Virus record (IMG/VR): IMGVR_UViG_3300025789_000018
Origin: a virus
Lineage: Duplodnaviria > Caudoviricetes
Length of the DNA: 64,000 nt
Strand: one strand, 5' to 3'
The position numbers and the translations under genes were made by a program. The notes beneath the pieces are model-generated. The model saw only the letters and a program-made list of their open reading frames with translations. It was not told the DNA's origin and ran no database searches. This document shows positions 905 through 63,853 of this stretch, one piece after another. Every line of letters starts with the position of its first letter. Position 1 is the stretch's first letter.

Positions 905-1145
905 TCGTTCCTCTTTTAAATTAACGATTCTGGCGATTGCATGTGTCCTTATAGAGCGTCTCATCTCGTGACAGTGATACAATGCTAAAAGAAGATACAA
1001 ATAATGGATACTCTCGGGTATCTTCTAGTCCATCTCCCTCTTACTGGAGTTGCAAAATCATTATGCTTTTATGGCGGTAATCCGCTGCTTTCTTCTGAAA
1101 GCTATGTAAGAGCTCATGGAGGCCATGCCTCCGATTATATTTATA
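905..1145 (-). promoter_or_regulatory. Late promoter (TATAAATA 1138-1145) plus long structured leader of SleB paralog 1
   Basis: Block 1017-1055 matches 59698-59737 at 35/40 positions; CTCTTAC/GTAAGAG and AGAAGATAC/GTATCTTCT stems present in both copies. Confidence 0.7.
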
Positions 1146-1194
1146 TAAGTCTTAGAAATTATTTTATCGGTTGGACTTATTTTTGTAACGTTTG

Positions 1195-1302
1195 AACTTA
1201 GAAGAACACTGACTGATACCTGCACTTCTCACCGTGTGCTTTTCGAGTCGCGATCCCTAGATATCCGCGTGGCGTTATTCGTTGTCAGTGTTCATCAAAG
1301 TT
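1195..1302 (-). ncRNA. Putative small structured RNA A (GAUGAAC closing-helix family)
   Basis: Terminal inverted repeat AACTT-T-GA-T-GAACACTGAC / GTCAGTGTTC-T-TC-T-AAGTT enclosing two hairpins; no credible ORF. Confidence 0.5.
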
Positions 1303-1470
1303 TGCTGGGTACTATCGCTCCGTTTAAGGGCAATCGCTATACGTAGCCCCCCTAGAATAAACCTTTCATCGGTTGCGCCGAACATCCCACATAGTGGCGG
1401 TTATCAGCTAGGGTGATGATCTTCCTCGATAGTTAGGATCTTGCGCTCTTCTGCTCGGACCCAACAAAAC
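1300..1470 (-). ncRNA. Putative ~170-nt multibranch RNA D downstream of a late promoter (TATAAATA 1472-1479)
   Basis: Nested stems 1301-1310/1459-1468, 1311-1317/1427-1433, 1350-1355/1408-1413, 1328-1331/1346-1349. Confidence 0.5.
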
Positions 1471-1480
1471 TTATTTATAA

Positions 1481-1589
1481 ACTTAGAAGAACCTACGATA
1501 TGGAGCACCCTCTCCATGGCAGCCACCAACGTCTTCGTCAAGACTTATTTCGGTGGTAGAACCCGTCGGCAAAGTAGGTTCATCTAAGT
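1481..1589 (-). ncRNA. Putative small structured RNA B (GAUGAAC family)
   Basis: ACTTAGA-T-GAACCTAC / GTAGGTTC-T-TCTAAGT terminal stem; inner CCACC/GGTGG and ATGGAG/CTCCAT hairpins. Confidence 0.5.
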
Positions 1590-1631
1590 GGTGGTTATTC
1601 TGTTGCAAGGTCAACCACCAAACCCATATTT

Positions 1632-1698: not shown

Positions 1699-2469
1699 AT
1701 GACTATTTATACAGGATACGTATATCTTTGGTACGACACCAGAGCAAAATTCTTTTATCTTGGTGGCCACAAAGGTAAAGTAGAAGATTCTTATATCTGC
1801 TCTAACAAAATGATGCTGAGAGCATACAAGAAACGTCCAGAAACATTCAAATTTCGTGTGCTTGAATATGTTTACGGCGACAACAAAGCTTTGCGTGAAG
1901 CAGAACAACGTTGGCTAAACATGATCAAAGACGAAGAACTTTATTGGACACCAAACATTTACAACAAAACTGTTAGATATTACAACCAGAAGAAACATTC
2001 TGCTGGAGGTAATGGCACTGCCAATAAAGGCAAAAGTAGACCAAGTTGGAGCAAAGGATATACAAAAGATGAAATAAATCTAAGAAGAGACGGTCTGTTG
2101 TCTTTCTTTCCTTTAGATATTCCTAAGAAACTTCCAAAAAGGCGTCAACTAGACAAAAGTAAAACAAAAATAAAAGAAGCAAAACCAAAGTTTTGTAAAG
2201 TGTATTCGCATATATGCGAAAAGTGTGCTAAAAACTTCTATCATAAAAAAGATGATATTAGATTTTGCTCTCTATCATGCCGCGCAAGTAATGCAGCATC
2301 TTTAGTAAAGGTAAATGGCATGAAGAAAGAACAAACTAGAAAAAGTTTTTCTAATCTAACCACTGGAAGAAAAATGTCCACGAGAGAAGACGGCACAAGA
2401 TATTGGACATATCCAGATAATGAGGGTGTTTATTTCACAGAGTACACCCACAAACTCCGAACTACTTAG
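1699..2469 (+). CDS. Seg-like GIY-YIG homing endonuclease
   Basis: GYVY..FYLGGHKG..YICS N-terminal GIY-YIG-type motifs; C-terminal CxxC..CSxxC zinc motif; antisense to the flanking genes. Confidence 0.85.
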   Translation: MTIYTGYVYLWYDTRAKFFYLGGHKGKVEDSYICSNKMMLRAYKKRPETFKFRVLEYVYGDNKALREAEQRWLNMIKDEELYWTPNIYNKTVRYYNQKKHSAGGNGTANKGKSRPSWSKGYTKDEINLRRDGLLSFFPLDIPKKLPKRRQLDKSKTKIKEAKPKFCKVYSHICEKCAKNFYHKKDDIRFCSLSCRASNAASLVKVNGMKKEQTRKSFSNLTTGRKMSTREDGTRYWTYPDNEGVYFTEYTHKLRTT

Positions 2470-2470
2470 A

Positions 2471-2756
2471 TCAGGCAGACATTCTCACGGCTGCAAAATC
2501 GTTGTCGTTATGTGCAACTAGGTTGACATTTACAGTTTTAGCCACTCGGCCAGCGAATCAGTCTAGACTTTCCTATCCAATGCAAATCGATCCCAGGTCA
2601 TCCCCATCAACTACACTGTGCTATATAAGGATAGCGTTAGTCCTAAGTCTTTAGACAATACTATCTAGCAGATACTAAATGCACAGTATAGATGGTGGAG
2701 ATGGGGAGAATCGAACTCCCGTCTTTACATCTTTCAGTCCGCTTTCAAACAACTGA
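2471..2756 (-). ncRNA. ssrA: Circularly permuted (two-piece) tmRNA
   Basis: Acceptor piece ends GAC-GGGAG-TTCGATT-CTCCC-CATCTCC-ACCA (3' end 2693); coding piece starts GGGGATG at 2605, giving G3-U70; 87-nt intervening stem 2606-2692; TAGTT|GCA resume site and tag AHNDNDFAAVRMSA* at 2471-2515; late promoter 2762-2769. Confidence 0.92.
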
Positions 2757-2796
2757 TAACTTATTTATACGCGAAACGCATATAAATGTCAAGAGA

Positions 2797-45392: not shown

Positions 45393-45536
45393 TCAATCGT
45401 TATTTTCCAACCGCTGCTTGATGGCAGCAATCACATCATCAAGGCATTCGTGCGAATCGGTGCCGTCTAACTCAAGCATGGCCTTTGCCCAATCAAGGTC
45501 ATCAAGCGCCATTTCCAAAAGTTCACGATCAGTCAT
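45393..45536 (-). CDS. Small hypothetical protein (47 aa, not in ORF track)
   Basis: Hand translation MTDRELLEMALDDL...; coupled to the ligase stop. Confidence 0.5.
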   Translation of the reverse strand: MTDRELLEMALDDLDWAKAMLELDGTDSHECLDDVIAAIKQRLENND

Positions 45537-46782
45537 TGTACTTCACTCCCGGAAACCAAGCATCACGGATCGCTTCATACTTTGCCGTGCGACCAAGGTT
45601 ATTACGGATCGTTTTGCGAACGTCTTCGCCAATCTTCAGACCACTGATAATGTCGTTATCAAAGTTCTTGAAAATAATAGGACGAATGAAAGCATCAACA
45701 CCAACACTGTGCTTCGGATCGATTGCAAACGTTTTACGATCAATACCACGCTCACGGAGATATTCCAGCTTCATACCAATCAGCCTTACGCGACGGGCAA
45801 TATCAAAATGAATATTGCTCTCAAACTGAGTCAGCCGATCACGATCTTCGGCAGGCAGATGAGCCTTGATGTCATCCAGCTTTTCTTCCAGAATCAGTTC
45901 AACGATGTTGCGATCTTGCAGGATAGCTTCCTTCGCCTTGTGAATCTGGAGATACCAATGGCACTTCAACTTCAACATATGACCATCATCAAAACGAACC
46001 ACGAACCCTTCAAGGTCTTCCAGATCGTGGACGTATTCAAGGAAAGCCTTCATATCATTCTGTTCACCATAGTTAGTGAACTCAAATGCACGGACGACAG
46101 GGATATCCCAATCTTCAACATGCAATCGGTTGATACGACCATCACCGAACAGTTTGATATATTCGCCAGTATGCATATCGCGAAGAGCGGTGAGGATCAG
46201 TTGATCTTCCTTGTAGTCCAGAACAATGCGCTGCTTACGCGAACACCATTCAAAGATAGGAGTTACACCGTTGGCAATGCAGGAAGTAGCAAACTTCTCA
46301 TACTGAGGTTTGTTCTTGACGAACTCCTCAACAGGCTTTGCCACGTCGGTAGCACCCATCTTCGTGCCCCAGATCATTTGACCATTCACAATGAACGGAG
46401 CGATCATGGAACCATCCAGCTTCTCAAGGATAGCATGAGGGCGCGACAGATCAATGACATGATCCTGCGTCTCCTCACGCTCGTTCACATTGAAGAACTT
46501 ATGGAACGGGCGACGAATGATATAACCAGTTTCAGTATCAAAGATGATACCACGACATTCACGACGGATTGCTGCGGTGGGATCGTACTCACCAAAAGCA
46601 ATACGATTGAGAGGCTCCTGCCACTTCATATCAACTGGCACATCAGGAAACGTATCGGACATCATCACGTTGTAGTTGATGACCGTGTAGCCTTCCTTCT
46701 CAGCCACAACGAACTCGTAACGACCTTCAATAGCAGGCAGCACATCAGCGATGTTGGTGATGTGAGGAAACTCATAGTTCAT
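45529..46782 (-). CDS. rnlA: RNA ligase 1 (T4 RnlA-like)
   Basis: ECRGIIF..FHKFFN, EKLDGS, TPIFEW, EGFVV, KLK. Confidence 0.88.
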   Translation of the reverse strand: MNYEFPHITNIADVLPAIEGRYEFVVAEKEGYTVINYNVMMSDTFPDVPVDMKWQEPLNRIAFGEYDPTAAIRRECRGIIFDTETGYIIRRPFHKFFNVNEREETQDHVIDLSRPHAILEKLDGSMIAPFIVNGQMIWGTKMGATDVAKPVEEFVKNKPQYEKFATSCIANGVTPIFEWCSRKQRIVLDYKEDQLILTALRDMHTGEYIKLFGDGRINRLHVEDWDIPVVRAFEFTNYGEQNDMKAFLEYVHDLEDLEGFVVRFDDGHMLKLKCHWYLQIHKAKEAILQDRNIVELILEEKLDDIKAHLPAEDRDRLTQFESNIHFDIARRVRLIGMKLEYLRERGIDRKTFAIDPKHSVGVDAFIRPIIFKNFDNDIISGLKIGEDVRKTIRNNLGRTAKYEAIRDAWFPGVKYND

Positions 46783-46835
46783 TGTTCAATCTTTCACTCT
46801 GCTACATTCTCACCATACACGATTCGTATTAAATG

Positions 46836-47909
46836 TCAAGAGGCATTATACCGCTGGATATACCATGGGCGTGCTACATTCGCAATAGCAGATCCCAGCT
46901 TCTTGGTATCAATCTGATTCGCAACGATGGTATCAGCTTCTTCCTTGACGACATCATTGTAGACCCAACGGATAAAATCGCCGAGAGACTTCATATCAAA
47001 GGGCAGCAGTTGTTCGCGAACCAGATTGTCTAGACCCTGTTCAAGACGCGATTCAGTGACAACTGATTCGATGAAAGCCTTCATGTTCTCTACTGCTTCA
47101 ACATCAACAGCAGCAAGAGTCTTGACCTTCGAAGAAGAATGCTTTTCGCCCTTGACTTTAAACCAAGTGCCCGAGTCGTTATAACCAGGAGTGACGCAAG
47201 TCCACACAACACCTTCGCCAATGCCGCTAACACCAAAGTGCTTACCGACAGGGCATTCGGCTTCAACAGCTTCCGTGATTTCGATCATCTTGTTCTGAGC
47301 GATTTCAGGAAAGTTGAAGTCAATGTCGATTTCGTAGGTAGGAAACTCATTGATCCAGTAAATATTAGGGACAGCCCGTTGACTCACTTCAATGAAACTT
47401 GGCATGTTTGCCCAGACAGAATCATCATCTGCATACATTTCTTTATATGCAAACACAACAAACATCTTGTCCAGACCAGTAAGAGCAACACCCTTTTGGA
47501 TATTACCACCGCACCATTCACCAAACAAAACTAGTTTTGTTGGCATTTTATTGGTCTTGCGCGGAGCAAACTGTTCCATAAGACCGTTGTGGAAACATGC
47601 TTCAAAATACTGAATAAAGATTGATTCGTGACTCTTAGCCCAAAGCATGAAGCCAGCATTGTCAGAAGTCAGCGACAGTTCACGTTCACGCGACTGATAG
47701 CTAATAGTGTCGGTGGCAACGTCATACACGATACCCGCGTTGGTACCATGCAGCTTGACAGTACCACGAAACTTCAGCGTAGGAAGCGGGCGAGAATGAT
47801 CATACACAGCATTGCCATCAGCATCCTTGCCAGCATACCGCGTATGGTTCTTGACATGATGAATCGTGGAACGGAACTGTTCAATAGAGGGAAACCTAAT
47901 CAAGTGCAA
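46836..47909 (-). CDS. RNA ligase 2 (Rnl2 family)
   Basis: KLHGTN, QSR, FGEW, GEGVV, KVK; probable TTG start after AAGGAG. Confidence 0.85.
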   Translation of the reverse strand: MHLIRFPSIEQFRSTIHHVKNHTRYAGKDADGNAVYDHSRPLPTLKFRGTVKLHGTNAGIVYDVATDTISYQSRERELSLTSDNAGFMLWAKSHESIFIQYFEACFHNGLMEQFAPRKTNKMPTKLVLFGEWCGGNIQKGVALTGLDKMFVVFAYKEMYADDDSVWANMPSFIEVSQRAVPNIYWINEFPTYEIDIDFNFPEIAQNKMIEITEAVEAECPVGKHFGVSGIGEGVVWTCVTPGYNDSGTWFKVKGEKHSSSKVKTLAAVDVEAVENMKAFIESVVTESRLEQGLDNLVREQLLPFDMKSLGDFIRWVYNDVVKEEADTIVANQIDTKKLGSAIANVARPWYIQRYNAS

Positions 47910-48499
47910 TCTCCTTTTCTTTGCATGGCATATCTTCCGCACCAAAATCTACGATATAAGGAAAGGGAAGATAATCTTCCAGAACATCAACCACTGTTCC
48001 TACTTGATTTTCGTTAACAAGTCCAATATCTCGCGTGGCATACACCCTATCACCAATCTTAAACATAATCTTCTTCCTCATCTTCAATCAAGAAACCTTC
48101 ACCACCACAAACGACGCAAGTTTCACCATATTCTACACCACTGCCACCACAGACCATACAATCAATAGGATTGCAGCCACGACGACCATACGCATCTTCA
48201 TACACATCAGGATCAATCATAAAGACTCACTTATAAAGTTCAAGAGGATGAACGACCGTCAGTTCTTCTTTGACATATAGCCAGAAGGGTTCAGGAAAAG
48301 GCGGAGCATATTCACGCCCATAGAACACTTTGATCAACTTGCCATCGACATCGGCGACAACACCAACGCGATCCTTGTTGGGCCAAATGCACGAGCGGAC
48401 CGAATCACCAACTTTAATCATAAAAAATCTTCCTTTCGCTGTCTGATAACTCATCATATCAAAAGGGAGATAAATGTCAACCAGTTTTTTCAGAAAAAA

Positions 48500-63592: not shown

Positions 63593-63669
63593 TGGTCTAC
63601 CATGAGAGATTTGAACTCCCGATCTCCTGGCCCCAAACCAGGCGGATTACCAGACTTTCCTAATGGTAG
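63593..63669 (-). tRNA. tRNA-Pro (UGG)
   Basis: CTACCAT/ATGGTAG-ACCA acceptor stem, CCTGG-TTTGGGG-CCAGG, TTCAAAT T loop. Confidence 0.9.
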
Positions 63670-63677
63670 ACAATAAT

Positions 63678-63777
63678 CTATTTAGATGAACAATGAACGT
63701 TCAAGTTCTGGTCCTGATTTTCATACCATCTAGCGCCTTACGTCTAGTTCGTAATAGATCATTGTTCATCAAAATAG
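63678..63777 (-). ncRNA. Putative small structured RNA C (GAUGAAC family) between two tRNAs
   Basis: CTATTT-T-GATGAACAATGA / TCATTGTTCATC-T-AAATAG terminal stem; two inner hairpins. Confidence 0.55.
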
Positions 63778-63779
63778 TC

Positions 63780-63853
63780 TGGTGCCGATAAGAAGAATCG
63801 AACTCCTGTCAGAGGGTTACAAATCCACTGTATTACCACTATACTATATCGGC
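63780..63853 (-). tRNA. tRNA-Thr (UGU) with mismatched anticodon stem
   Basis: GCCGATA/TATCGGC-ACCA acceptor stem, TTCGATT T loop; anticodon stem GTGGA/CCCTC has U-U and A-C mismatches. Confidence 0.85.

Follow-up and report, generated by a model that had tools for sequence, protein, structure and literature searches.

Results and discussion

The window, i.e. the whole 64,000-nt stretch of DNA analysed here, is part of a T4-like phage and carries on its minus strand three copies (E1, E2 and E3) of a large RNA family which is confined to phages and absent from the catalogues and literature searched. In this family, a nearly constant closing helix (the stalk) encloses a different interior (the cargo) each time. 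The three copies are probably genes for small stable RNAs of ~100 bases that are co-transcribed with the tRNA and tmRNA genes of the phage. None of the families in Rfam 15 reaches its gathering threshold for the elements, and no published description of the stalk family was found in the literature searched, mostly outside subscription journals.

The function of the stable RNAs in the tRNA clusters of phages T4 and T5 has been a loose end for decades. In the present case, one recognisable stalk tags dozens of RNA families that are interchanged in the manner of accessory genes, as is typical of host-phage conflict. Next to offering a simple way to enumerate such RNAs, the stalk predicts their exact ends, allows cargo-by-cargo tests against host defence systems, and could be used as a scaffold to express structured RNAs.

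Stalk-closed RNAs in the window

Exactly three matches to the two-armed pattern TTAGAWGAAC-N65..95-GTTCATCWAA are present in the window, at 1198-1299 (E1), 1483-1587 (E2) and 63682-63773 (E3), as compared to none in 100 shuffles. This agrees with an earlier note on this DNA, which had described three elements with a common closing helix from the sequence alone. Its closing helix and inner stem extensions were also seen in the minus-strand folds (z of -2.6 for E1, -4.6 for E2 and -5.2 for E3), as were the U·U mismatches it had placed on this strand, two of which are present in E1 and one each in E2 and E3, that of E3 at a different position. Two inner hairpins, likewise ascribed to every element, are well predicted for E2 and E3 and weak in E1, where the centroid structure is mostly open. 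A fourth stalk copy above shuffle level was not detected in the window by a pair-profile scan.

E1 (1195-1302, minus strand), delimited by arm pattern, fold and pair profile, is composed of a 5' arm (1302-1290), a cargo including the inner stem (1289-1208, 82 nt) and a 3' arm (1207-1195). The corresponding parts of E2 (1481-1589, minus strand), delimited by arm pattern, fold and comparison with relatives, are located at 1589-1578, 1577-1493 (85 nt) and 1492-1481. E3 (63677-63778, minus strand) occupies the gap between the genes for tRNA-Thr and tRNA-Pro, possesses the complete outer half-site and harbours a cargo of 72 nt (63763-63692).

The contexts of the three elements indicate that each copy starts where another structured RNA ends. 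E2 and E1 are located downstream of a permuted (two-piece) tmRNA gene of the alphaproteobacterial type (2471-2757, minus strand) and on the same strand. The tmRNA-adjacent position given in the earlier note can be sharpened for E2, which starts where the Rfam alpha_tmRNA model ends: the 3'-terminal hairpin of the permuted tmRNA coding piece (1587-1625, minus strand; a weak match to the 3' end of alpha_tmRNA) lies directly upstream of E2 and is parted from the remaining tmRNA by an inserted ORF. In contigs L337, L321 and L338, the tmRNA is contiguous and scores above the gathering threshold, and the model ends at stalk position -1. Taken together with the weak match in the window, this places E2 on the 3' hairpin of the tmRNA. 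Between E2 and E1 resides a structured RNA of ~165 nt belonging to a family other than the stalk RNAs (1300-1470, minus strand; four compensatory pairs in three sequences; no Rfam match), the 3' end of which overlaps the outer 5' arm of E1. A T4-type late promoter, TATAAATA, is found directly after E2 (1472-1479, minus strand) and would drive the 165-nt RNA together with E1; overall, 17 copies of this promoter are present in the window versus 2.8 expected. In the case of E3, the final CCA base of tRNA-Thr(UGU) (63780-63853, minus strand) is the first outer position of the stalk, and the 5' end of tRNA-Pro(UGG) (63593-63669, minus strand) follows 7 nt past the paired stalk.

Size and distribution of the family

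Relatives were collected by pattern scans of viral and metagenome contigs, followed by an inner-pairing filter and rescoring with a pair profile; about half of the raw pattern matches in viral contigs were attributable to chance (no inner pairing or tRNAs) and were discarded. In total, 162 elements (93 unique) were obtained from 101 phage loci and represent 55 cargo families. The presence of the element in related phages, proposed as a check in the earlier note, was thereby confirmed, and its proposal of a conserved stem that presents variable small RNAs is supported. All but two of the elements (160) come from loci that also contain tRNA or tmRNA genes, and 159 of these 160 are on the strand of the local tRNAs, a count that is partly circular as the profile was trained on same-strand copies. 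As for the spacing to the neighbouring genes, in about half of the families (24 of 46) the element ends 9-16 nt before a tRNA, and many elements start 7-18 nt after one.

Outside the phage contigs, a scan of bacterial and archaeal genomes yielded two matches, about the number expected by chance, neither with tRNAs nearby. Isolated phages provided no meaningful blastn match, and no convincing element was detected in those nearest by NrdA (DLP_6, XaC1, GAP32 and PA5oct), the window NrdA being ~60 % identical to its nearest isolates. Stalks around more than 260 nt were not found, and a sequence-free helix scan proved too noisy for use. A complete genome of 361 kb contains three intact copies, one copy without the 3' arm and one stalk sharing its outer part with another core. 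A second stalk class is represented in G019 (242896-243058) by a long and perfect stalk that shares the outer sequence, has a different core and closes a T-arm-bearing RNA.

Architecture of the stalk

The stalk comprises ~21 bp with the consensus AGACUWWU-UAGAUGAAY-RCW / WGY-RUUCUUCUA-AWWAGUUU, numbered from the U of UAGAUGAAY as +1 and usually containing U·U at +5. Part of the conservation of its core is built in by the search patterns themselves. Positions -8 to +13 are 80-100 % paired except for +5, which is U·U in 45 of 55 families and U-A in E3 and in relatives of E1; pairing falls to 40 % at +16. Compensatory changes occur at -3, -2, +2, +9, +10, +12 and +13. G·U pairs are frequent at -7, +9 and +13 (27, 14 and 19 of 55 families, respectively) and workable on the tRNA strand only, thus fixing the RNA strand independently of the profile; the few changes among the relatives of E1 and E2 fix it as well.

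Cargos and their exchange

Cargos range in length from 29 to 178 nt and seldom contain an ORF. Alone, they are no more stable than shuffles (median z of -0.24). Their structure covaries within families (11 two-sided changes versus 3.7 in shuffles, from six related sequences), and a tRNA T arm is present in 8 of the 55 cargo families, none of which is among the three of the window.

From one phage to another, cargos are replaced, relocated or lost, the breakpoints coinciding with the inner edge of the 10-bp core; the earlier note had overlooked this exchange and loss. The E2 slot of contig L337 encloses an unrelated cargo in flanks that match the window without a difference over 48 nt on the upstream and more than 60 nt on the downstream side. 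The switch occurs precisely at GAAC and, on the opposite side, at GUUC, i.e. at the inner core edges. Larger phages have the same L337 cargo in front of tRNA-Phe and tRNA-Met, combined there with a different outer stalk. Across relatives, four cargo types are found in the slot that follows the tmRNA, at least two cargo families occupy 8 of the 12 slots having two or more unique members, and members of the largest cargo family precede five different tRNAs. L347 has lost the E3 cargo, the fused arms forming a short hairpin, and tandem cassettes have outer arms in common. Single contigs such as L337 and L347 could be chimeric; seven other slots show the same swapping. The simplest reading would be exchange by recombination within the conserved 10-bp arms.

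The diversity, exchange and dispensability of the cargos, together with their tRNA mimicry, lead us to the tentative guess that they may act as mimics or decoys for host RNA-binding proteins and form an exchangeable accessory repertoire. More doubtful is a wider scheme in which the stalk would be a universal chassis, serving as a handle for release and stability or for protein docking and at the same time as a recombination hub. Large lytic phages would then trade more than 55 structured RNAs as decoys or mimics directed at host RNA-binding defence or regulatory proteins, in the manner of integron-like cassettes of non-coding RNA.

Comparison with known stalk-closed RNAs

By analogy, the stalk RNAs appear to work like the stalk-closed stable RNAs of phage T5, yet they constitute a separate sequence family. 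RNAIII, RNAIV and RNA2H of T5 (GenBank AY543070, annotated as "stable RNA with unknown functions") resemble the stalk family in their size of ~100-170 nt, their location in a tRNA array on the tRNA strand, their multibranch interior and their closing stalk of ~20 bp, in the middle of which the annotated ends are placed. These ends give 2-nt overhangs in RNAIII and RNA2H. C(-6)W(-5) is common to all three T5 stalk RNAs, and RNAIV has an outer stalk (ACUUAUU/AUAAGU) identical to the outer consensus of the stalk family. In contrast, the T5 stalks differ from each other and lack the GAUGAAY/RUUCUUC core (profile scores of at most 4 versus 32-68 for the family), and neither a common stalk nor an exchange of cargos is annotated for T5. 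Species 1 and 2 of T4 (rnaC and rnaD) are, as predicted for the stalk RNAs, small stable RNAs of a T4-like tRNA cluster and presumably differ in their tRNA-like 3' ends and in having no shared closing stalk.

The RNase III stalks of 16S and 23S rRNA and of T7 early RNA (PMC6212723, PMC8708148) likewise bracket a structured RNA with about two helical turns and carry A-U at D/D', as does the stalk family in the predicted outer register, and the stalk family resembles the E. coli 16S half-site. It differs from the rRNA and T7 stalks in its much stricter sequence conservation, its fixed U·U and its interchangeable cargos. The motif was absent from the rRNA stalks of four alphaproteobacteria and one betaproteobacterium (best profile score of 21).

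Y RNAs including YrlA (Rfam RF02553; PMC4201824) share with the family a terminal stem combined with a variable, sometimes tRNA-like domain. A Y RNA identity was nonetheless rejected. With respect to the Ro60-binding motif GNCGAAN0-1G, U replaces C in 51 of 55 families, including all three window copies, and C is found in 3; a phage gene for Ro60/TROVE was detected within ~4 kb in 0 of 17 and 0 of 5 records, among them G019 (100 % complete) and G020 (92 %), with a host-encoded Rsr still conceivable; and the best cargo attains 15 bits with RF02553, far below the cut-off of 69. This cargo (L035, 1457-1535) displays the YrlA-like order of T arm, closed acceptor-like stem and D-like arm.

Processing and alternative explanations

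Release of the stalk RNAs by RNase III is favoured with moderate confidence. The enzyme would cut in the outer stalk immediately 5' of the first A in AGAUGAAY (before +2) and leave a 2-nt 3' overhang. With the flanking tRNAs processed by RNase P/E, the cut would free the adjacent tRNA or tmRNA end and yield an RNA of 90-105 nt on a 12-bp nuclease-resistant handle, comparable to T5 RNAIII, RNAIV and RNA2H. The predicted products are 1297-1198 for E1, 1585-1483 for E2 and 63771-63682 for E3. Since no phage-encoded RNase III was found in the complete genomes searched, the enzyme would be that of the host.

Calibration of the cut register was based in part on E. coli rRNA stalks, the cut positions of which are assumed by us and were checked for 2-nt overhangs alone. 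A symmetric "+3G" register was dropped, because this calibration puts G at the fourth base after the cut. Further calibration relied on two studies (PMC6212723, PMC9291653); taken together, the calibrations call for A-U as the third base after the cut and G as the fourth. In the outer register, C-G is present at -6 in 42 of 55 families and A-U/U-A at -5 in 48 and at +3 in all 55, the A-U/U-A pairs agreeing with the D/D' preference of PMC6212723. Several registers fit the RNase III rules in the A-U-rich stalk helices, and the cut was placed before +2 because the ends of the T5 stalk RNAs serve as tie-breaker. A duplex of ~20 bp across the predicted cut is available in E3 and in the majority of the family. 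The core is kept in E1 and E2, yet these have only 2-3 bp beyond the predicted outer cut and miss the outer half-site, which argues that the core is conserved for a reason beyond this cut. Also against the outer cut are the A-U pairs of the overhang, where E. coli prefers G-C, the U·U mismatch at a position where RNase III prefers G, and an inner register like the E. coli 16S site in 32 of 55 families. The RNase III processing suggested in the earlier note is thus plausible from the helix length, C(-6)/W(-5) and the T5 precedent, and is weakened by the choice of registers and by the truncated stalks of E1 and E2.

The RNase P site coincides with the 5' end of the next tRNA, and the AGUUUA behind the 3' arm also usually follows the CCA of tRNAs in these arrays, so that a discrete RNA is expected even without RNase III. 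If RNase P and RNase E alone released the RNA, the stalk could be a sequence-specific protein-binding handle following the logic of Y RNAs, in which the uncut U·U helix binds a host or phage protein (Ro60/Rsr, or a non-cleaving RNase III) that stabilises or presents the cargo. Such a role would fit the tRNA-type trailer, a core sequence far more conserved than usual RNase III sites and the survival of this core in E1 and E2 despite the lost outer half-site. The unpaired U, moreover, sits where the GNCGAA of Y RNAs has C, the inner helix of the YrlA consensus also reads GAAC/GUUC, and one cargo has the T-AS-D order of YrlA. Though a serious rival, this explanation is considered the less likely one in view of the rarity of C at the Ro60 position (three families), the absence of TROVE genes from the records searched, near-complete and complete genomes included, the YrlA score of 15 bits versus the cut-off of 69, and the replacement of U·U by U-A in E3 and the relatives of E1.

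If RNase III cut at the base of the cargo instead, i.e. in the inner register, the stalk would be a disposable carrier and the bare cargo the mature RNA, possibly circularised by phage RNA ligases, homologues of Rnl1 and Rnl2 being encoded in the window. NNWGNNC fits the inner register best of all registers (the 32 families above), and half of the families have UGUGUUC or AGUGUUC in the 3' arm, similar to ^UGUGGGC of E. coli 16S; C-G at +11 (47 of 55) and W-W at +12 (54 of 55) are conserved even though the stalks carry unrelated cargos. This we judge improbable, as the second half-site would fall into the multibranch junction (pairing of 40 % at +16), many cargos would lose their closing stem, the motif is broken in E2, and the T5 precedents retain a 12-bp stem. 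Mobile or neutral inverted-repeat cassettes acting at the DNA level and devoid of RNA function would account for swapping, deletion through arm fusion, tandem arrays and the dispensable cargo of L347. They are very hard to reconcile with G·U pairs on one strand, with a constant orientation and spacing to the following tRNA, or with the T arms and the covariation of cargo structures, and we regard them as the least probable explanation by far; in addition, the arms are unlike integron attC core sites (RYYYAAC/GTTRRRY), and no inverted cargo was noticed.

Neighbouring genes and further structured RNAs

An ORF at 1699-2469 (plus strand) is GIY-YIG-like by eye and belongs to no Pfam or PHROG family. 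Together with its leader it occupies 1626-2470, antisense between the stop of the tmRNA tag and the 3'-terminal hairpin of the tmRNA; in L337 and L315, the tag piece and the 3' hairpin are contiguous. The intervening segment of the tmRNA (window, ~2615-2695, minus strand; L337, ~1137-1212, minus strand) has an unrelated stem and interior in the two otherwise near-identical tmRNA genes, suggesting that this segment is exchanged, too. In the window, it is closed by a helix different from the stalk.

Several relatives harbour an insert of ~240 nt after E2 (L008, 1656-1900, plus strand) without Rfam match, the start of which resembles a spacer after tRNA-Cys in the tRNA array of G019 (~247840); it probably represents another mobile family of non-coding RNA. 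L347 contains a complete tRNA-like gene ending in CCA between the E3 slot and tRNA-Pro; L006 has a truncated form, and the window lacks it. GOLLD RNAs are located immediately upstream of stalk cassettes in L035 (7545-8034) and L265 (4527-4989).

The neighbouring Rnl1-type and Rnl2-type RNA ligase genes of the window (45529-47945, minus strand) are ordinary T4-like genes, and the analysis yielded no support for the ligase-circularised RNAs or the antisense action envisaged in the earlier note. A structured leader (990-1140, minus strand; z of -3.3) with a late promoter precedes the gene for a cell-wall hydrolase (356-1000).
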